From Methanobacteriota archaeon (GTDB lineage: Archaea > Thermoplasmatota > SW-10-69-26 > JACQPN01): 64,000 bases of DNA. How positions within the stretch are numbered: the stretch's first letter is position 1; each line of letters starts with the position of its first letter. The notes under the pieces were generated by a model. That model was not told the origin of the DNA. It saw nothing but the letters and a program-made list of their open reading frames with translations, and searched no databases. The position numbers were made by a program, and so were the translations under genes. This document shows, piece after piece, positions 3,455 through 26,154 of this stretch. The stretch spans positions 12,350 to 76,349 of the forward strand of contig JACQPN010000002.1 of NCBI GenBank assembly GCA_016207515.1, in the 5' to 3' direction.

Positions 3455-5107
3455 TCACGGACACTTCACAAATGGGAAAAGTTCTCTCGACGAAGCAGGC
3501 ATGCCGGGTTCGCCACATGCATCGTTTGAGGCCTCGCTAAGGCCCACCACGTTTCTAGCCCTTACATGGTGGTAGAATACGTTATCTGGCGTAAATGTAA
3601 GATCAAAGGAAATGGCTCCGGCGTTGCTATTGGTTGCTATCAGGCTCGTGTTGTACGTTGTTATGGAAGGCCCAACGCTCCCGATGAGGATCTCATTTCC
3701 GTCACCTCCGATTCGATAAATCCGGTAGCCCAGGAGACCCACGCCTCCCGTGGCATTTGGGGCCGCCCAGGATAGGGTGATTTGAGAAATGCTTGTCGAC
3801 GCCAAGGCTGGCCCTTGTCCAAATGCGACGGGCGTTGCCGTCAAGTTCCATGGTTCTGAGGGCCGAACTGGTGCGACACCGTGGACCGTGGTTCCTGGCC
3901 CTGTCCCCTCCAAAGTGACCGCTCGCACCTCATAGTAATTCGACTCGCCATCGCCCAAATCCTTGTCGCGGTAGGACAACGTGGTGCCGATATCCGCGAG
4001 AAGCGTCATCGCGTCCGGCGAGGAGCCTCGAAAGATGTGGTAGCCGGTGATTGCATGATTGTGACGGAGGGGCTCCTGCCAGGAGAGACTGACTTCCCCT
4101 CGACCAGAGCCTGTTTTCGCAGACAGATTTCCCACGGGATCCAAAGCCTGGTTTGCGGGATCGTACACAACGATATCCCTCAGGCGTTGGTACGCGTCGT
4201 TCCCACCAATTACATATGCGACGCCGTCGCCCCAAACCGCGCTCGTTAGGTCCACGGCGCGTGGCAAACGATCATTCGTCAAGCTGACGAGTCCGGTACT
4301 TGGATCGAACCGCAACACGTCCCACAAATGTGACCCTGTGCCATTCCCTCCGAAAACCAATGCCTCCGTTCCCGTCCACACGCCGCTAATGTGCCGGCGA
4401 CCAGAGGGAAGGTGGCTCGACAAACGTTCAACAGCGCCACTCGATGGTTCGAACCTGATGATTGTTGCCACGGGCCCAATCGCGTCTTGGCCGCCAAGCA
4501 TGTACGCGTATTGACCGTCCCAAACCGTTGCTCCGAAATCGTTCCCCTCGGGCAAGGTTGACGAGAGTGTGACGACCGTGCTGGTATCCGGGTCGTACCT
4601 CAGTATCGTAGGTTGCGGAACTCCGCCAACGTGGCCACCTAGGAGGTAGATGTATTGCCCATCCCAAAAAGCGCCCGCGCCGTAGGTCCGATTAGGAAGG
4701 CGAATGGGCACGAGAGTCAGAGAATCGGTCACTGGGTCGTACTGGAATATCTCGTCAAGAGGTCGGCCAAGCGTGGGCCCGTAGCCGCCAAGCACGAAGA
4801 TTTTTGAACCAGCGGTCACCACTGCAGGATACTCTATGCTGAATGGCAAATTGGTGGCCGTTGCACTCAAGCACCCGGGCGGCTCGAAATACCATATTCG
4901 CTGCATGATGCCACCGAAAACGTACGCGCGGCCGTCGAACCAAGCGGCCCCCGTTGCATCGTTCGGTAGCGGTAATTGGCATTCAGACAGAACCGTCGAG
5001 TCCGCTTTGCCGGTGGGCACAATCGCAAACGCGGCCTGGGCCACGACTATTACGACTATCCAAGTCGCTTGACGCATCCGTTTGGATTTCAAAGACGCCC
5101 CCTTCAC
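3455..5107 (-). CDS. secreted Kelch-repeat beta-propeller protein with two fibronectin type III-like domains
   Basis: 550 aa; N-terminal signal-like hydrophobic segment; repeated Kelch-like blades (..VFGG.., ..LLGG.., ..MLGG.., ..VIGG..) followed by two FN3-like segments. Confidence 0.78.
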   Translation of the reverse strand: MKGASLKSKRMRQATWIVVIVVAQAAFAIVPTGKADSTVLSECQLPLPNDATGAAWFDGRAYVFGGIMQRIWYFEPPGCLSATATNLPFSIEYPAVVTAGSKIFVLGGYGPTLGRPLDEIFQYDPVTDSLTLVPIRLPNRTYGAGAFWDGQYIYLLGGHVGGVPQPTILRYDPDTSTVVTLSSTLPEGNDFGATVWDGQYAYMLGGQDAIGPVATIIRFEPSSGAVERLSSHLPSGRRHISGVWTGTEALVFGGNGTGSHLWDVLRFDPSTGLVSLTNDRLPRAVDLTSAVWGDGVAYVIGGNDAYQRLRDIVVYDPANQALDPVGNLSAKTGSGRGEVSLSWQEPLRHNHAITGYHIFRGSSPDAMTLLADIGTTLSYRDKDLGDGESNYYEVRAVTLEGTGPGTTVHGVAPVRPSEPWNLTATPVAFGQGPALASTSISQITLSWAAPNATGGVGLLGYRIYRIGGDGNEILIGSVGPSITTYNTSLIATNSNAGAISFDLTFTPDNVFYHHVRARNVVGLSEASNDACGEPGMPASSRELFPFVKCP

Positions 5108-5265: not shown

Positions 5266-6423
5266 ATGCCCCGCGTCGCCGTCGTCGGAGCCGGCCATTC
5301 AGTTTTCGGCGACCGTAACCTTACTCTCCGCCAGCTTTTCCACGAGGCCTTCACCGAACTCGCCTCCAATGTCGATCGCAACTTCGACGCGCGAGACATC
5401 GAGGAGGCATACATCGGTTCCCTCGGGTTCGGCGGCGGCCAACTGGGAAACCTCGGCCCCTTCGTCACCGAGACCTCCGTGTCGCCTTCTATTCCCTGTC
5501 GCCGCGTCGAGAACGCGTGTGCCTCCTCGGGCTATGCGTTTCGCGATGCCGTCCTTGCGGTGAAGTCCGGGGAACGCGACCTCGTCCTCGCGGGAGGTAT
5601 CGAACGGATGAACGACCTCTCGCCGATCCACAAGCGTTTCTGGCTCGGGGTCTCCGGCGACACCGAATGGGAACGCACGGCAGGCCTCACGTTCGCCGGA
5701 GTCTACGCGTTGATGGCCGAGCGCCACATGATCGAGTACGGGACGACACGGGAAGCGCTCGCGGCCGTCGCCGTGAAGAACCACGCGAACGGCGCCAGAA
5801 ACCCGAAAGCGCAGTTCAGGAAGGAGATAACGATGGAGAAAGCGCTCCAATCGGCGGAGGTCGCCTCGCCGCTCCATCTTTTCGACTGTTGCTCCACGAC
5901 GGACGGGGCGACCGCCGTCCTCGTCGCATCCGAGGAAGTGGCGCGCGAATTGACGGACACGCCCATTTGGGTCACGGGTTCCGGAGCGAGTTCGGATCAT
6001 CTGGCGCTCATGTCGCGTAAGTCCTTGACACGTCTCGACGCGACGGCCCGCGCAGCTCGAGACGCGTTCGCGCAGGCGGGGCACACGGAAAGCGATGTGG
6101 ACGTGGCCGAGGTCCATGACTGCTTCACAATCGCGGAAGTGATGGCCGTCGAGGACCTTGGCTTCGTCGCCAAAGGCGAAGGCGGGCGCTTCGCCCTCGA
6201 AGGCCGGGGAAGAATAGGCGGCCGGCCGACGATCAATCCAGGTGGCGGCCTCAAGGCGAAGGGCCATCCGCTCGGCGCGACCGGCACCGGCCAGGTGTAC
6301 GAGGTGTGGAAGCAGCTACGGGGCCAAGCGGGAGAACGGCAGGTGGAGAATGCCGAGGTCGGTCTTACGCACAACGTCGGCGGCTCCGGCGCGAGCGCCG
6401 CGGTCCATGTCCTGGAGCGCTGA
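5266..6423 (+). CDS. thiolase (acetyl-CoA C-acetyltransferase, archaeal type)
   Basis: N-terminal MPRVAVVGAGHSVFG, active-site Cys context (ENACASSG), C-terminal GHPLGATG and NVGGSGAS motifs typical of the thiolase fold. Confidence 0.9.
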   Translation: MPRVAVVGAGHSVFGDRNLTLRQLFHEAFTELASNVDRNFDARDIEEAYIGSLGFGGGQLGNLGPFVTETSVSPSIPCRRVENACASSGYAFRDAVLAVKSGERDLVLAGGIERMNDLSPIHKRFWLGVSGDTEWERTAGLTFAGVYALMAERHMIEYGTTREALAAVAVKNHANGARNPKAQFRKEITMEKALQSAEVASPLHLFDCCSTTDGATAVLVASEEVARELTDTPIWVTGSGASSDHLALMSRKSLTRLDATARAARDAFAQAGHTESDVDVAEVHDCFTIAEVMAVEDLGFVAKGEGGRFALEGRGRIGGRPTINPGGGLKAKGHPLGATGTGQVYEVWKQLRGQAGERQVENAEVGLTHNVGGSGASAAVHVLER

Positions 6424-6425
6424 AG

Positions 6426-7613
6426 ATGGCGGGGGTCGCGTCGTTCGGCATCGCGTATCCTTCCTTCGAGGTACACGTAGATGAGAAGAGGCGCGGCAAG
6501 ACGCGACGGTCCGCCTTGCGGCGGCTCGTGACCGCGTTCGACGAAGACGAGAACACGCTCGCCGTCGACGCGGTCCGCGCGGTGCTGGCCCACACGCGGC
6601 TCTCACCGCGCGAAATGGCCTGCGTGTTCGTGGCATCGACCGCTCGCAAGCCGCGCCCGAGCGCCTTCGGCGAAGCGTTCTCGGAGACCACCGTCCTCGA
6701 TGTCCTCGAACTCACCGGCGTTCCCGTCGTGAGGTTTCCGGACACGCCAATCGGCGCGGCCAAGACGCTGCTTGCGGCGGCGACTCGATCTGGGGACGAA
6801 GACAGACCGATGCTCGTCTTGGCGACCCATGACGCGTCTCGATCGCTTTCCGGCGGCGCTTTGGCGGCCGCGGCCATAGTCACACGGACGGGAACCTGCG
6901 ATCTTTCCCTGCCGACCGGTTTCAAGGGGAGATCGGTCTCTCGCGCACTCGGCGTGGTCGACATGGGGGCAGCGGGCTTCATCGCCGAACTCATGGATGC
7001 TGTCGCCGCGGTCCGAAGCGATCGGTTCACGCTCGCCCCTTCAGGCTCTAAGCGTCCCGTCTTGGGGGTCGGACGGGCCGCAGATGTGCCGGGTGCTTTC
7101 CGCTTCGAGCCCAAGACGACGCCGATCCCGCAGGAGTCCTTCGACCGGTTGCGGGCAATAGGTGTGGAGACCGGGCACATCCACGACAAACCCATGGGGG
7201 CTTTCGTGTCTCAGGCCACGTGGCTTGCCGGCTCCCGGGCCCGCTACCATTTGGAAGGCGCGGTGTGCGGTTCATGCAAGGCCGTGAACTTCCCGCCCAA
7301 CGAGACTTGCAACGAGTGCGGCGCCGGACAGATGGTGACGCTTCGCCTTTCGGGGCGCGGCACGACATACTCGCTCACGAGGATCGGCCGGGGCGGGGCG
7401 CCCGCCGAGTTCGCGATGCAGGAGGCGCTTTCCGGGCCGTATTGGGTGGCGATCGTGGAACTCGACGAAGGGCCGAAGGTCGTTTCACAACTTGCCTGCG
7501 GGTTTGGCGGCGAGCCCACGGTGGGGACAAGAGTCCAGGCGGCTTTCAGGCGCATCTACAAGCAGGACGGGTCTTCGCGATATGGCCTCAAGTTCGTGCC
7601 AAGCGTGCCTTGA
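6426..7613 (+). CDS. DUF35-type Zn-ribbon/OB-fold protein with a long condensing-enzyme-like N-terminal extension
   Basis: ATG 3 nt after thiolase stop; C-terminal CGSC...(FPP)...CNEC zinc ribbon followed by OB-fold-like segment; N-terminal ~260 aa resembles a thiolase-fold enzyme but no catalytic Cys is evident. Confidence 0.75.
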   Translation: MAGVASFGIAYPSFEVHVDEKRRGKTRRSALRRLVTAFDEDENTLAVDAVRAVLAHTRLSPREMACVFVASTARKPRPSAFGEAFSETTVLDVLELTGVPVVRFPDTPIGAAKTLLAAATRSGDEDRPMLVLATHDASRSLSGGALAAAAIVTRTGTCDLSLPTGFKGRSVSRALGVVDMGAAGFIAELMDAVAAVRSDRFTLAPSGSKRPVLGVGRAADVPGAFRFEPKTTPIPQESFDRLRAIGVETGHIHDKPMGAFVSQATWLAGSRARYHLEGAVCGSCKAVNFPPNETCNECGAGQMVTLRLSGRGTTYSLTRIGRGGAPAEFAMQEALSGPYWVAIVELDEGPKVVSQLACGFGGEPTVGTRVQAAFRRIYKQDGSSRYGLKFVPSVP

Positions 7614-7899: not shown

Positions 7900-8403
7900 A
7901 TGAGCACCGACGACGATAGAGGGACGTCGGCGAAGCGCGGAACGCCACCAAGCGTCGAACGCAAGAATGCGGTGGACGAGGCGAAGCGGATCCGTGTGCC
8001 CGGACACCAGGCGGGCGAGGATGCCGCGGGTGAGCCGAGGCGGATCCGCGTGCCAGAAGCGATCCTTCGCAAGATGTACGTGGAGGGAAGCCTCGCGAAC
8101 GCCAGGCAATCCGTCGTCTTCAGTCTACGGAACCAGTTCTCGACGGCAACGATCGTTTCGTTCCCGCAGCTCTTGATCGATGGCGCGAGAGTCGCCGTTG
8201 CACGACTCTGCGTGAAGGTCGCGGCCAAATCGACGCTCGCGAAATCCGTCCGCGACTCGCAGCCGTTCGTCTTCGCCAAGAACGATGAGGCTGTCTTCTT
8301 GGTCGATACAAAGCGCCTCGCGGCGGGCGTACACTCCGTACAATTGACGGCGGACACGCGTGAGTGGGGGCGGCTTGTCGTGGAGTTCGAAGCGAGTATT
8401 TGA
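7900..8403 (+). CDS. hypothetical protein
   Basis: ORF 7705..8403; more protein-like than the overlapping antisense ORF 7650..8357 (Ser/Thr/Arg-rich); start uncertain (ATG 7900 chosen); contains an internal direct repeat (RIRVPGHQ / RIRVPEA). Confidence 0.4.
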   Translation: MSTDDDRGTSAKRGTPPSVERKNAVDEAKRIRVPGHQAGEDAAGEPRRIRVPEAILRKMYVEGSLANARQSVVFSLRNQFSTATIVSFPQLLIDGARVAVARLCVKVAAKSTLAKSVRDSQPFVFAKNDEAVFLVDTKRLAAGVHSVQLTADTREWGRLVVEFEASI

Positions 8404-11485: not shown

Positions 11486-11814
11486 GTTTGCCGCGGACCG
11501 TGACACGCGTTGAGTTCCCCTGCCGTGCCAGGGCCGCCACGTCCGTTCCTTCTCGTCGAGGGTCCGGGTCCGCGATGTGAGCGGGGCGCCATGCGGTTTC
11601 TCGGCCGATTCTCCGTTTTTGTGGAACGCCTTTTGACAGACCTGAACCGGTCCTAATCACGGTTGAGGCTCTAAGAAACCGTCTGTCGGGAAACCGGCTT
11701 CCGACCGGCGGCGTGCCGAAAAAAGCGCCCGTATCTCGAATAGGGTCTGAGGAAATTGTATAAATAATCCAAAATCAACGGACCAGCACCGCACGACGCG
11801 GTGGAGGCTGAAAC

Positions 11815-12042
11815 ATGCGACCAAAACACAACCGATTGGAATCCGTCTTGGAGGCAAGCGAGGCACGGTTCGAATCGGGCGAACACCTGGAGGCGCCCGA
11901 AGCGCCGAAAGAGGCAGCGAACGTGGAACACAGGATCCGGTCCGTCGACTCGATCGCCCGCACGATGAGCATCATCAACAGGCACCCGATGCACGTGAAG
12001 GGTGGGTTCGCGGAAGGCACAGACGCCTGGAACAACGCGTAA
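11815..12042 (+). CDS. hypothetical small hydrophilic protein
   Basis: 75 aa; ATG ~50 nt downstream of TATA-like gtataaataatcc (11758-11770); its last codons lie inside the first copy of the tandem repeat. Confidence 0.35.
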   Translation: MRPKHNRLESVLEASEARFESGEHLEAPEAPKEAANVEHRIRSVDSIARTMSIINRHPMHVKGGFAEGTDAWNNA

Positions 12043-12264
12043 GGGGGACCGAGGGCCCGGGAGGGCACGAGGTCGCCCACTTTGGATGCACCCTTTGGCC
12101 CTGGCGCAAACAACTGTTTGCGCGGGGCCGCGCGCACGCCCGGCGTGCGCCGCGGTAAAGGGTGCTGGAGCAACGCGTAGGGGGGACCGAGGGCCCGGGA
12201 GGGCACGAGGTCGCCCACTTTGGATGCACCCTTTTGTAAAGGGTGCTGGAGCAACGCGTGGCGC
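12027..12264 (+). repeat. tandem direct repeat (two full ~70-bp copies plus a partial third) with GC-rich hairpins
   Basis: ctgga(a/g)caacgcgt(a)gggggaccgagggcccgggagggcacgaggtcgcccactttggatgcaccctt at ~12027 and ~12165, partial copy at 12245; palindromes gcgcaaaca-ac-tgtttgcgc and gcgcacg-cccgg-cgtgcgc between copies. Confidence 0.8.
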
Positions 12265-12585
12265 GAAAAAATCCCTGCGAAAACCAACGTCCGAGGCGAA
12301 GAAGGAGAGGCAAACGGGGGCGGGGCATTCTTTCCGCATCAGTGGAACGGGTCGCCCCGCGCGTCCGGCCGCCGGGCATGCACCGGATGCCGGGGCGCAC
12401 GGGGGTTTTCCATGGAGGCAGCGCAATCTTTTGAACGGCCCCGGGCAAATGCCAATGACGATGTTTCCAAACGTGCGCTAAAGCAGGGTTTAATACCCGT
12501 GGAGTCTCCATTATACGCCGCGGGAGCGGAGGACAACGGGAAGCCTTACGTTTTTCCGACCGCGCGGACATGAGGAAATGACTCG

Positions 12586-22002: not shown

Positions 22003-25000
22003 TCACGTCATGTCGTAGTGCGTAGTGCCGGCGCCTTCCGGCGAAACGTAGAACGCCTTGACCACGTTCTGCCCTGCTTGCGGCCGCAGGGGAAGCGTCG
22101 GTGGACTGAGGTTGCTTCCCACTATCCACCCGTTGAGCGAGATCAAGTGCCACCCGGGCAAGTACAGGCCTGCGCCGGCACCGGTATCCACGTCAAAGCC
22201 CACCGTGAACGTCGCGCGGCCGCCAGCGTCGGTCGTAAGGTCGAGTTTCAAGTCGGTGCGGGCCGTGAGCGGTGGCATGCCCGTCTCGACCACCGGGACG
22301 GTCCTGACGGCCCCAGTATAGGATACGTCGAACACGAGCGCCTCGCCTTCGACGGGCACTCCGTCGATGAAGACGACGCTCACGTTGCCCGTGACGGGCT
22401 TCGTGGGGTCGTTGAAACTGTCCGAGCGTCCCTCATCGTACGTCTCGAAGGGCGGCACCGGGACGATGCCGACCGTCGACGCCACGACGCCGACCTCCGC
22501 GTCCTGATCGAGGATTATCGTGTACGTCTTCTGCAAAGCGATCCGCAAGGGGTCCACTTCGACGGAGCGCGTCGCGAGGCCCATTTGGTAGCGCGCGACG
22601 ACGAACGTGCCGCCGGGGTTTATCGTGAGCCTTACTTCCAGCATGTCGTTGGCGCCCCACTCCCCGATGCCGAACGAGGCGTTCGCCCAACCGTCCGCCG
22701 TCACTGCGATCTCCGAATCGCCCGTCGAAAGCGTCGCTCCGGTCGAAAGGTCAACGTAGGCGAGCGCATACACGCTCGAGGTGAGGTTGAACGGCCTATC
22801 GCCGGGCGAGTGCACGAGGCGAAGCTCCACATCAAAGTTCGTCCCGCCGTAGACGCGGATCGTCTTTGAAACGGTCGAGGTCGCCCCACCCGTATCCGTG
22901 ACCCGGAGGCTCACCACGTAACTCGCCGACAGGGTGTAGGCGTGGCTCGGGCTCTGAGCCGTAGAGTTCGACCCGTCGCCGAAGTCCCACAGGTACTGGA
23001 GCGGCAGGTTCTCGGGGTCCGTCGAGGCGTCGATGAACTGGACGGCGACGTTCTCCACGGGTTGGACCGTCGCTACCGTGAAGTCGGCGGTCGGGAGCCC
23101 GTTGGCGACCGATACCGCGTGGACGATGACCGTCGAACCGCCGTCGTTGTCCGTGGCGGTCAGCGTGACATTGTAGGTGCCGATCGCGGAGAACGAGTAG
23201 TTGACGTCCGGCCCCGACGCGGTCCCGTTCGCGTCCCCGAAGTCCCAATCGAGGGTCACGACACTTCCATCGACGTCGAGTGCGGTCGAGTGGAACTCGA
23301 CCACCTGGGCCGCGATGGGAGAACCGGGGTTGAAGTTGAAATCCGCGCTCGGCGGCGCGTTGACCCGTATCGTCGTGTTCGTCGTCGACGAGCCGCCCGA
23401 ATTGTCGGTGACCGACAAGGTGACCGTGAACTGGCCGGCCGACGCAAACGAGTGGTTGACGATCGCGCCGCTGTCCGTCGTCGGCGTGTCGCTGAAGGCC
23501 CAAAGGCGCGCGACGATGCTGCCGTCCGGATCGGTGGAGGTGTCGGTGAAGAAGACCGTCTCGCCGATCTGCGGCACAGTCGGCCCGTACGTGAAGCTCG
23601 CGACCGGTAGCCGGTTTCGCACCGTGATGCTCGCGGAGGCGGAGGCGGACGCGCCCAGGTCGTCGGTCACCGTGAGGGTCACGACGTACACGCCCGGGTT
23701 CACGTAGGCGTGCGTGGTGTTGCGGATCGTGGAGTTGCTGGCGTCCCCGAAGTTCCAAAACCACGATACGATGGTCCCGTCGGGGTCAGAGCCCGTCGCG
23801 TTCATGTAGACGGTCTCGAAGGTGAGGACGTTGGCGGAGTTCGCCGTCCATTGCGCCGACGGCGGCCTGTTCACGGCGACTATCTTCGTCACGGAGCCCG
23901 TCGCACCGTCGTCATCGGTGACCGTGAGTGTGACCGAGTAGGCTCCCGAGCCGGGAAACGTATGGGACGGGTTCGCGTCGGTGCTTGTCGGGAGCGTGTC
24001 ACCGAAGTTCCAGAGATAAGAGACTACGACGCCGTCCGGATCCGAGGCTAGCTCCGTGAAGTTGACAGGTTCGCCGCGCCTTGCGACCGCGGGCGACCAT
24101 GAGAAGTCCGACACGGGGCCCCGGTTGAGGACCTGCAAGTTCACAAGGGCCGTGTTCGAGTAGCCGTCATCGTCGGTCACGGTGAGGCTGACGGTGTAGT
24201 TGCCGGAGTTCGCGTACGAATGCGTGGGGTTCGATGCGGCGGAGCCGTTCCCGTCGCCGAAGTCCCAAAGGAGCGACACGATGACGCCGTCTGCGTCCGT
24301 GGACGTGTCGTTGAACTGGATCGTCTGGCTAGTGAAGGGCACTGTGGGCGTGCGGGTGAAGCTTGCAAGCGGTGCCTGGTTGCCGACGTACATGCGCGTC
24401 TGCGTCGTGTTCGTTGCGCCATCGTCGTCGGTCACCGTGACGCTCACCGTGTAGTTGCCGTCGTCTGCGAACGAGTGGATCGGGGCTTGTACGGCGGACG
24501 TGTTCCCGTCGCCGAAATCCCAGAACCGGGTGACGATCGTCCCATCCATGTCGGTGGACGTATCGGAGAATTGGACCGGGCTCAGGTCGACTGGGAACGG
24601 AGGCGTGAAGGCAAACGACGCGACTGGAGCCCGGTTCAGGATAGTGATGTTCAGGGTCGTGGAATTGGAGAGAAGCGTGTTGTCCGTGTCGGTGAGGGTG
24701 ACTGTGTAGACGCCGTCGTCGACGTACTGGTGTTTGACCGTTATTCCGAGGGTCCCGCTGAGGTCCGTGTGCGTCGCGTGAACGATGGTGACCGGCTCGT
24801 TGTAGGCTGGGTCGTTGGCGCCGGGGTTCTGGAGATTGGCGTTGAGGTGCCCGTCGCCGAAATCGAAGCGGGAAAGGACGATGACGCCGTCGTCGGTGGA
24901 AAGGTCCGTGAACCTGATGTTGGTGAAAGTGTAGACGCCGAAGAACGGGGAGGCCTGGAGGAGCATCGTGGGCGGAGGGAATGATACGCATGTCTGCGGG

Positions 25001-26154
25001 TCGTTCTCGTCCACACAAAGGGGGCCTCCGAGGAGCGTCTGGTTGTGGCCAGCACCGGCACCCTGGGGGGAAACGATCTGGCGCGCGTATCCGTCGAGTG
25101 AGAGCCGCGCTTCGCGGGGGCCCACCTTGAAATAGGTCAGGACGCCGACGAAATCGGACACCGCGAATACGTTGTCCACTTTTCCCCACGATTCATACCA
25201 AACGCTGAGGTCGAAGTTGTTCTCGTCGAAGCTGATCGTGACGTTTCCGGTGGTCTCATTGTTGAACTGTCGCGTTTCCTGCGTCGTCGGCGTGAACTGG
25301 ATAAGCCCGATGGGCTGGTCCATGTAAGTGTAAGAATCGAGCGGCTTGCCATCCACTACGACCGCCGAGACGGGGATGTTCTTCGTGACATCGCCGCCGA
25401 TTGTCCTCTCTGTCTGGAGCCTCGCGAACCCGCCGGGGTTGAGTTCCACACCCGTCACTTTCTGGCTGTCGACGATGACGAAGGCGATCTTCGTGGTCTC
25501 CTCGTCCAAAGCACCCTTCGCGTCGGCCAACGAGTCGAGCGACTGCTTCGCATGTGCCTTGTTGTTCGTCGAGACTTGCTTCAGGTCCGACTCCGCGAAC
25601 ATCGCACTGTGCATGGTCCCGTCGAGATGGAGTTCCGCGCGCGTGGTGCCCGCGTTCGAGACACCATACTTGCCTTCGAAGTGGCGTAGCGTGATCACGT
25701 CCATCGGCGTGAGTTTCAGTTCGCGGTCCCCGACGAAGAGGCGCGCGTTGTCGCCGCTTTTGGTCCCGACCTTGAAGATCAGTTTATCGACTTTGCCCGT
25801 CCCCCAGAAATCGGATTCGATCTTCGCGCCGTTCAATTCCGCGAAAAGCACGGAGACGCCGCCATACGCGTCTCCGCCTGGACCTTGCGCCGTGTAGACG
25901 CGAAGGTCCGTCGGGACGCTCGAGACGTCGATCCCTGTCTCGCCGCCGGCGAACTGCGAGTAGGTGGCGGTGAACTGGGAAAAGAGCAGGCTGCCGATGA
26001 CGACCATGATGGCCAAAAGTTGCTTTATCAGCAAACTGGCCGCCTCCGCCCGTTCCCTCTTTCCAATCCTGCCCGCTCCTTCGACCTGCCGCTTAAGAGT
26101 GCCATGGGGACGGTCGATAGATAACCGGTTCTGCGTCACTCCAGTTGGGAACAA
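22003..26154 (-). CDS. giant cell-surface protein with ~8 tandem PKD domains
   Basis: 1383-aa ORF; ~8 repeats of the PKD signature W[DN]FGDG...H.[YF]...G; N-terminal hydrophobic signal-like segment (true start probably near 26007). Confidence 0.85.
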   Translation of the reverse strand: MFPTGVTQNRLSIDRPHGTLKRQVEGAGRIGKRERAEAASLLIKQLLAIMVVIGSLLFSQFTATYSQFAGGETGIDVSSVPTDLRVYTAQGPGGDAYGGVSVLFAELNGAKIESDFWGTGKVDKLIFKVGTKSGDNARLFVGDRELKLTPMDVITLRHFEGKYGVSNAGTTRAELHLDGTMHSAMFAESDLKQVSTNNKAHAKQSLDSLADAKGALDEETTKIAFVIVDSQKVTGVELNPGGFARLQTERTIGGDVTKNIPVSAVVVDGKPLDSYTYMDQPIGLIQFTPTTQETRQFNNETTGNVTISFDENNFDLSVWYESWGKVDNVFAVSDFVGVLTYFKVGPREARLSLDGYARQIVSPQGAGAGHNQTLLGGPLCVDENDPQTCVSFPPPTMLLQASPFFGVYTFTNIRFTDLSTDDGVIVLSRFDFGDGHLNANLQNPGANDPAYNEPVTIVHATHTDLSGTLGITVKHQYVDDGVYTVTLTDTDNTLLSNSTTLNITILNRAPVASFAFTPPFPVDLSPVQFSDTSTDMDGTIVTRFWDFGDGNTSAVQAPIHSFADDGNYTVSVTVTDDDGATNTTQTRMYVGNQAPLASFTRTPTVPFTSQTIQFNDTSTDADGVIVSLLWDFGDGNGSAASNPTHSYANSGNYTVSLTVTDDDGYSNTALVNLQVLNRGPVSDFSWSPAVARRGEPVNFTELASDPDGVVVSYLWNFGDTLPTSTDANPSHTFPGSGAYSVTLTVTDDDGATGSVTKIVAVNRPPSAQWTANSANVLTFETVYMNATGSDPDGTIVSWFWNFGDASNSTIRNTTHAYVNPGVYVVTLTVTDDLGASASASASITVRNRLPVASFTYGPTVPQIGETVFFTDTSTDPDGSIVARLWAFSDTPTTDSGAIVNHSFASAGQFTVTLSVTDNSGGSSTTNTTIRVNAPPSADFNFNPGSPIAAQVVEFHSTALDVDGSVVTLDWDFGDANGTASGPDVNYSFSAIGTYNVTLTATDNDGGSTVIVHAVSVANGLPTADFTVATVQPVENVAVQFIDASTDPENLPLQYLWDFGDGSNSTAQSPSHAYTLSASYVVSLRVTDTGGATSTVSKTIRVYGGTNFDVELRLVHSPGDRPFNLTSSVYALAYVDLSTGATLSTGDSEIAVTADGWANASFGIGEWGANDMLEVRLTINPGGTFVVARYQMGLATRSVEVDPLRIALQKTYTIILDQDAEVGVVASTVGIVPVPPFETYDEGRSDSFNDPTKPVTGNVSVVFIDGVPVEGEALVFDVSYTGAVRTVPVVETGMPPLTARTDLKLDLTTDAGGRATFTVGFDVDTGAGAGLYLPGWHLISLNGWIVGSNLSPPTLPLRPQAGQNVVKAFYVSPEGAGTTHYDMT

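Follow-up and report, generated by a model that had tools for sequence, protein, structure and literature searches.

A thiolase gene paired with a shortened, predicted inactive HMG-CoA synthase-DUF35 fusion in an archaeal metagenome-assembled genome

Two adjacent genes on contig JACQPN010000002.1 of an archaeal metagenome-assembled genome (MAG), analysed here within a stretch of 64,000 nucleotides (the window), probably constitute an operon for a heteromeric thiolase. In the complex that we propose, the thiolase would be the sole enzyme, and the product of the second gene, a fusion of a domain resembling 3-hydroxy-3-methylglutaryl-coenzyme A (HMG-CoA) synthase (HMGCS; HMGS in the names of fusions and related domains) with a DUF35 module, would serve as a non-catalytic structural subunit. 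The architecture is not unprecedented: a thiolase next to an inactive HMGS-DUF35 fusion belongs to a kind of system described recently (PMC12960953, Nat Commun 2026), and the pair found here is its archaeal, internally truncated variant. In the literature that we searched, HMGS-DUF35 fusions are mentioned in that study alone, which mined bacterial genomes only and mentions neither truncated nor archaeal inactive forms. New here are the wide distribution of the pairing of thiolase and inactive fusion in Thermoplasmatota, the shortening of the HMGS-like part and the constraint that still acts on its remnant.

Two adjacent genes for a thiolase and a long DUF35 protein

The thiolase gene (5266..6423, plus strand; ATG at 5266, TGA at 6421-6423) encodes a 385-aa protein of the archaeal acetoacetyl-CoA/SCP2 type. 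According to the open reading frame (ORF) map and the junction sequence, the fusion gene (6426..7613, also on the plus strand; ATG at 6426, TGA at 7611-7613) begins only 2 nt behind the thiolase stop codon. A preliminary description of this DNA, made from the letters alone, had placed a thiolase followed by a long DUF35-type gene at 5266-7613. Both genes were located there by the ORF map and by identity with NCBI entries, and the second protein is indeed long, with 395 aa instead of the 396 aa given. The thiolase corresponds verbatim to MBI4392284.1 and the fusion protein to MBI4392285.1, which NCBI names 'OB-fold domain-containing protein' and assigns to a 'Euryarchaeota archaeon' MAG. A Shine-Dalgarno-like GGAG motif (6414..6417, plus strand) lies inside the thiolase gene near its 3' end and precedes the ATG of the fusion gene by 8 nt, and its position together with that of the fusion start suggests that translation of the two genes may be coupled. 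Since identical copies of the pair are present in three independent Logan assemblies and an orthologous fusion (P0002, 76% identical) shows the same layout on a separate JGI contig (L002), faulty assembly is ruled out as the source of this architecture. The guanine-plus-cytosine (GC) content of the fusion gene at the three codon positions (0.65/0.55/0.78) resembles that of the thiolase gene (0.68/0.50/0.78), and the fusion gene is therefore regarded as a normal coding region throughout.

Pfam assigns Thiolase_N (E=3e-22) and Thiolase_C_1 (E=1e-46) to the first gene product. It exceeds the cut-off of the NCBIfam model PRK06064 ('thiolase domain-containing protein'; 456.8 bits, cut-off 420) and stays below that of AcCoTHIOL_METTL, the equivalog model of the M. 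thermolithotrophicus acetyl-CoA acetyltransferase (408.7 bits, cut-off 600). The nearest solved structures are the P. furiosus thiolase 7YVY (E=3.5e-77) and 6ESQ_A, the thiolase of the HMGCS complex (E=9e-76). The three motifs listed for archaeal acetyl-CoA acetyltransferases (ACATs), namely CxS, HDxF and GHx (PMC12960953), are all intact, as Cys85-Ala-Ser, His284-Asp-Cys-Phe287 and Gly333-His334, respectively. Cys85, His284-Asp-x-Phe and Gly-His334 are invariant in the partner thiolases that were examined (83/83), and the thiolase is predicted to be the sole catalytic subunit of the pair.

A DUF35 module behind a reduced HMGCS-type domain

The C-terminal part of the fusion protein (residues 263-395 plus stop; 7212..7613, plus strand) is a DUF35 module consisting of a rubredoxin-like zinc ribbon and an OB fold, as had been supposed for its last approximately 130 aa. 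Pfam zf-ChsH2 and OB_ChsH2_C match residues 271-375 above the Pfam thresholds, and the zinc-ribbon cysteines 281, 284, 295 and 298 (7266-7319, plus strand) are invariant in the family alignment. The nearest solved DUF35 protein by sequence is 6ESQ_E of the M. thermolithotrophicus thiolase/HMGCS complex (E=9e-19), with ChsH2, PhlB and BbsA far weaker. The predicted structure of the module is likewise closest in fold to 6ESQ chains, the top Foldseek matches being 6esq_G/F/E (E~1e-11, target template modelling score 0.85, 37% identity).

Searched separately from this module, the N-terminal part proved to be HMGCS-like. Residues 1-260 have no Pfam match and no match among PDB sequences by phmmer. 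Over residues 1-77 there is weak similarity to two NCBIfam models of archaeal HMG-CoA synthase (E=9e-6 and 5e-5), and the NCBIfam HMGCS models reach 22-25 bits on the fusion protein against cut-offs of 244-353. A profile of the N-terminal region retrieved 64 matches from 1.84 billion representative proteins, all of them aligned over the N-terminal half and falling into two length classes of ~325-350 aa and ~440-500 aa, the long class with a C-terminal zinc ribbon/DUF35. One match of ~345 aa hit the archaeal HMGCS 6ESQ_I with E=1e-40 and PhlA with E=2e-37, which identifies the family as HMGCS-like. A hidden Markov model (HMM) built from ~335-aa members of this family matches the fusion protein with E=1.2e-14 in two blocks, positions 2-158 corresponding to residues 1-152 and positions 263-282 to residues 179-198; the positions between the blocks (~159-262) have no counterpart in the fusion protein. 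By the family HMM and the NCBIfam HMGCS models, residues 1-165 (6426..6920, plus strand) represent the N-terminal half of an HMGS-like thiolase fold, and residues 166-262 (6921..7211, plus strand) comprise a remnant of the C-terminal half and a linker.

The domain has thus lost ~100 residues, including the region of the catalytic His238, and is about one-third shorter than a complete HMGS-like thiolase fold (~340 aa) as present in the bacterial PfACAT/HMGS-DUF35 type. AlphaFold nevertheless predicted a compact and confident fold for the two-domain fusion protein, with a predicted local distance difference test (pLDDT) of 85.2 and a predicted template modelling score (pTM) of 0.88. This model rests on a 12-sequence family alignment, an input of three sequences having given an unusable pLDDT of 41. 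The C-terminal remnant keeps the 'G-D-x-G-A-A' helix 179-195, two strands and the terminal helix 236-242. What the N-terminal region retains is a true HMGCS-type thiolase fold in reduced form.

The catalytic residues of HMG-CoA synthase are missing from this domain. With the tetrad E82, C114, H238 and N270 (E-C-H-N) of the M. thermolithotrophicus HMGCS as reference, the Glu82 position is taken by Thr72, the Cys114 position by Asp106 or Pro108 depending on the alignment, the His238 region is deleted, and the Asn270 position corresponds to Asp179 by MAFFT, hmmalign having left the region unaligned. As the preliminary description had noticed, no cysteine occupies the active-site position; C66 and C158 are the only cysteines in residues 1-262 and neither is conserved in relatives, even close ones. 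The tetrad is also missing in all relatives from the profile search (64/64) and in every Thermoplasmatota fusion of the genome scan described below. Judged by these residues, a function of the N-terminal domain as HMG-CoA synthase is close to excluded.

It might still be argued that the domain is a non-canonical but active synthase that condenses acetyl-CoA and acetoacetyl-CoA by means of different residues, given that JGI labels the relative P0003 'hydroxymethylglutaryl-CoA synthase' and that the window encodes no other HMGS-like protein. We consider this extremely improbable, because none of Glu, Cys, His and Asn is left and the His-bearing region is deleted, residues 1-262 hold no conserved cysteine, the archaeal complex loses its activity when the tetrad is mutated, and a tetrad-less fusion from P. 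fluorescens makes no HMG-CoA (PMC12960953). P0003 (L001, 10001-11329; JGI 3300036851) is itself a tetrad-less HMGS-DUF35 fusion of 442 aa. Counting such fusions, which are common in Thermoplasmatota MAGs, as HMGCS is an annotation trap that would make the mevalonate pathway appear falsely complete or hide a real gap. Archaeal lipids require HMG-CoA, and an active HMGCS is therefore expected to be encoded elsewhere in the genome. The window holds no HMGS-like ORF besides the fusion by HMM and phmmer, and no other thiolase either. A profile search for canonical HMGCS gave at least 8,000 matches, from methanogens and DPANN; none of the matches listed lay on the 337,851-bp contig of the pair or could be recognised as belonging to this MAG.

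Distribution, shortening and selection

GTDB was scanned with one genome per species, a set that does not contain the genome of the window and in which the best match is 33% identical. The scan gave 80 loci, which were annotated with local HMMs. The closest relatives (L003-L017) are MAGs of Thermoplasmata, Thermoplasmatota and Methanomassiliicoccales, in which a thiolase (E~1e-140 to that of the window) is directly followed by an HMGS-like-DUF35 fusion. The order with the thiolase first and the fusion second is kept in relatives at 30-76% identity. In the scan, the canonical E-C-H-N tetrad was confined to HMGCS genes that belong to other lineages and are not fused (L028, L030, L050, L074 and L079).

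Unfused clusters of thiolase, HMGS-like protein and DUF35 without the tetrad were seen in uncultured archaea (L010, L024), Bathyarchaeota (L025), Baldrarchaeum (L029) and Desulfurococcales (L042). Likewise, Alphaproteobacteria (L018-L023) and Ammonifex (L019) have unfused three-gene clusters with a stand-alone HMGS-like protein that lacks the tetrad. Inactivation is therefore not tied to the fusion, and it is found in several archaeal phyla.

The majority of the Thermoplasmatota fusions are of a long form (~470 aa, HMM coverage 2-339), and a short form (367-395 aa), in which HMM coverage is limited to the N-terminal half, is represented by the window protein, P0002, L003, L006, L017 and P0043. 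A metagenome scan yielded at least nine distant loci, in some of which just the HMM positions ~111-167 are detectable, and at L026 and L027 the local HMMs detected no HMGS-like remnant upstream of DUF35. HMM coverage thus forms a graded series from 2-339 through 2-165 and 111-167 to undetectable. The short forms fall at three or more separate places in a neighbour-joining tree without bootstrap or other support values, which is suggestive of several independent events by which the HMGS-like part may have been shortened.

Selection was estimated by pairwise Nei-Gojobori dN/dS (ω) between the genes of the window and the orthologous pair on L002, that is, from one pair with a dS of ~0.5-1.0. The values were 0.057 for the thiolase and 0.076 for DUF35 (residues 263-395), compared with 0.33 for HMGS-like residues 1-262 (dS ~0.6, 262 codons) and 0.40 for residues 1-165. 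In this one sequence pair, the HMGS-like remnant is under relaxed yet purifying selection and is not neutral, as expected of a structural, non-catalytic domain.

An ω five- to six-fold above that of the DUF35 and thiolase parts, the graded erosion among relatives and the scattered short forms in the unsupported tree could alternatively mean that the N-terminal 260 residues are a functionless leftover of the fusion, tolerated as an extension, and that DUF35 alone partners the thiolase. Thiolase/DUF35 pairs without any HMGS are in fact common in archaea (bioRxiv 10.1101/2024.07.05.601840). However, such a decaying relic is quite improbable, as ω is clearly below 1 over the 262 codons, no frameshift or stop was seen in any copy of the fusion gene, the predicted fold is compact and confident, and the N-terminal half of ~165 residues is kept in independent short forms. 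Leading from a full-length dead HMGS through a half fold to nothing detectable, with thiolase and DUF35 strongly constrained, the relatives represent a natural deletion series. This series shows the dispensable part of a pseudoenzyme scaffold and is useful for engineering minimal thiolase complexes.

Comparison with known thiolase complexes

HMGS, ACAT and DUF35 are co-encoded at 1,030 bacterial loci (PMC12960953). The representative from P. fluorescens consists of a fused HMGS-DUF35 without the tetrad beside an ACAT in which Cys, HDxF and GHx are retained. Its complex forms neither HMG-CoA nor acetoacetyl-CoA from acetyl-CoA, and it cleaves acetoacetyl-CoA thiolytically in dependence on the His of HDxF (PMC12960953). 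The pair in the window has the same composition, with the HMGS-like domain N-terminal to DUF35 in one polypeptide (single ORF, 6426-7613), the ACAT gene adjacent, no E-C-H-N in the HMGS-like domain and Cys, HDxF and GHx in the ACAT. It differs in being archaeal (Thermoplasmatota-related) and in an HMGS-like domain that is ~100 residues shorter. In addition, the thiolase gene comes first in the window, whereas the fusion comes first in most bacterial fused loci of the GTDB scan.

The canonical archaeal complex (6ESQ) is made of three separate polypeptides with a fully active HMGCS of 349 aa, whereas the synthase part is fused, dead and truncated here. The window pair shares with this mevalonate-entry complex the thiolase motifs and a DUF35 with four-cysteine zinc ribbon and OB fold, but not the HMGCS tetrad. 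PhlA and MucA also lack E-C-H-N (PMC12960953); unlike the fusion of the window, they are full-length and not joined to DUF35. They belong to PhlACB (P. protegens) and MucABC (Streptococcus), Friedel-Crafts C-acetyltransferases in which PhlC/MucB lost HDxF and gained acceptor-binding residues. A C-acetyltransferase of this type was considered for the window pair and rejected, since its thiolase keeps HDCF at 284-287. Thiolase/DUF35 pairs without HMGS include the benzoylsuccinyl-CoA thiolase BbsAB, the aldolases Ltp2-ChsH2 and Sal-Shy, and the archaeal KT/DUF35 pairs of a proposed archaeal fatty-acid synthase. All of these combine an SCP2-type thiolase-fold enzyme with a zinc-ribbon/OB DUF35 partner, as in the window, but the partners carry no HMGS-like domain and their DUF35 is more distant (E=1e-6 to 0.02 versus 9e-19 for 6ESQ_E). 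Loss of HMGS activity in the thiolase/HMGS/DUF35 complex has recently been proposed as the first step to new bacterial acyltransferases. The present finding shows the same loss in archaea, whose lipid synthesis depends on the active complex as its essential entry.

Proposed function of the gene pair

We hypothesize here that the thiolase carries out reversible thiolysis or Claisen condensation of acetoacetyl-CoA or another short 3-ketoacyl-CoA, and that the zinc-ribbon/OB module of DUF35 would clamp onto it as in the archaeal thiolase/HMGCS/DUF35 complex. The N-terminal part of the fusion would descend from HMG-CoA synthase and be dead itself, having lost the Glu-Cys-His-Asn tetrad and ~100 residues of its C-terminal half. 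It is most likely kept for structure only, by dimerisation via the N-terminal half of the fold and packing against the thiolase, and might also form one wall of a shared CoA pocket; the remnant may in this way preserve quaternary contacts of the ancestral complex. The preliminary description had suggested that a degenerate scaffold resembling a synthase could be fused to DUF35 here, and the analysis supports this. Our proposal starts from what was observed, namely the identities of the domains, the missing catalytic residues and the deletion, the adjacency of the two genes and their conservation in relatives, and the purifying selection; from these we infer that a complex forms, that the fusion acts as its scaffold, and which substrate and reaction direction are likely.

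The endergonic condensation by the thiolase is driven forward in the canonical complex by channelling into the active HMGCS (PMC12960953). Since there would be no such channelling pull on condensation without an active synthase, thiolysis or a freely reversible interconversion of short 3-ketoacyl-CoAs is likely. By analogy, the pair would be expected to behave like the P. fluorescens ACAT/HMGS-DUF35, with thiolysis of acetoacetyl-CoA and no HMG-CoA formed. In long-form Thermoplasmata relatives, the pair stands among two enoyl-CoA hydratases, a second thiolase, glyoxalase-family proteins and an amidohydrolase, and the hydratases and second thiolase make acyl-CoA catabolism a fitting context for it. 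At L007 (2370-9996), the conserved cluster around the long inactive fusion and its thiolase comprises two enoyl-CoA hydratases, a second thiolase, two glyoxalase-family proteins, a luciferase-like oxidoreductase and an amidohydrolase, and it is syntenic in L008, L015 and L016 (Thermoplasmata/Methanomassiliicoccales MAGs). Its content suggests that it may be an acyl-CoA degradation module.

Several points weigh against a heteromeric thiolase with a structural fusion subunit. The complex is deduced from homology and gene adjacency, and no beta-oxidation genes are present in the neighbourhood of the pair in the window itself. The ω of 0.33-0.40, obtained from one pair by the Nei-Gojobori method, and the repeated shortening could mean that the N-terminal domain is being lost rather than needed. 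Finally, the next gene downstream hints at a connection to the mevalonate pathway instead.

This downstream gene (7900..8403, plus strand) follows the fusion gene directly and encodes a protein of 167 aa with a stand-alone PF25653 'HMG-CoA reductase N-terminal domain' (HMG-CoA_red_N; Pfam E=9.4e-14, 52.4 bits against a cut-off of 27). The match covers 1-114 of the 115 profile positions, and the protein has in addition a low-complexity N-terminus and no reductase catalytic domain. The gene is called in three assemblies and listed at NCBI as 'hypothetical protein HY556_00615'. A word-index search with the protein returned only itself, and it has no relative in PDB and no NCBIfam match. The gene is possibly associated with the pair.

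With this gene immediately downstream, the pair could have a role at the entry of the mevalonate pathway, the thiolase supplying acetoacetyl-CoA to a separately encoded active HMGCS and the dead HMGS-DUF35 offering a platform for docking or regulation, perhaps jointly with the HMG-CoA_red_N protein. DUF35 and thiolase both resemble 6ESQ components most closely, the archaeon needs HMG-CoA, and no further thiolase or HMGS-like gene is present in the window. This role is nevertheless unlikely, as the condensation would lack the channelling to an active HMGCS on which the canonical complex relies, and the bacterial analogue formed no acetoacetyl-CoA from acetyl-CoA (PMC12960953). Moreover, no relative of the HMG-CoA_red_N protein was found beside the fusion at the other loci, and the longer Thermoplasmata relatives are placed among enoyl-CoA hydratases and not among mevalonate genes.

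A bolder idea, very improbable in our view, is that the eroded HMGS-DUF35 serves as a minimal adaptor linking the thiolase to other mevalonate enzymes and to the HMG-CoA_red_N protein in an alternative entry metabolon. In its extreme version there would be no canonical HMGCS at all and HMG-CoA would be made by an unrecognised enzyme; in its modest version, the recurrent independent truncations would show the smallest half-thiolase-fold that the dead partner must still contribute to a thiolase/DUF35 complex.

Other features of the window

Immediately upstream of the thiolase gene and on the opposite strand (3455-5107, minus strand) lies a gene for a predicted Kelch/fn3 surface protein of 550 aa. 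It is absent from the orthologous contig L002 and can therefore be regarded as a lineage-specific insertion next to the operon. The other neighbours in the window, coding for a HicB-like protein, Spt5, AspRS and a V4R protein, are as uninformative for the function of the pair as the Kelch/fn3 protein.

Further features were seen at a distance from the pair. No Rfam family and no tRNA was matched anywhere in the window. The segment 37039-45417 contains five large ORFs (382, 424, 428, 538 and 416 aa) that were scanned and have no Pfam match, as well as a 171-aa ORF and a 302-aa minus-strand ORF outside the Pfam scan; compared with the rest of the window, its GC content is unusually high (0.67-0.68) and its AT skew strongly negative (-0.17 to -0.26). 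At 12017-12259, two direct repeats of 70 nt, 97% identical and 138 nt apart, occur together with a 24-nt sub-repeat in an ORF-poor region (~11600-12580) of about 1 kb without a convincing gene. A predicted surface protein of 1,383 aa with at least seven PKD domains is encoded at 22003-26154 on the minus strand.

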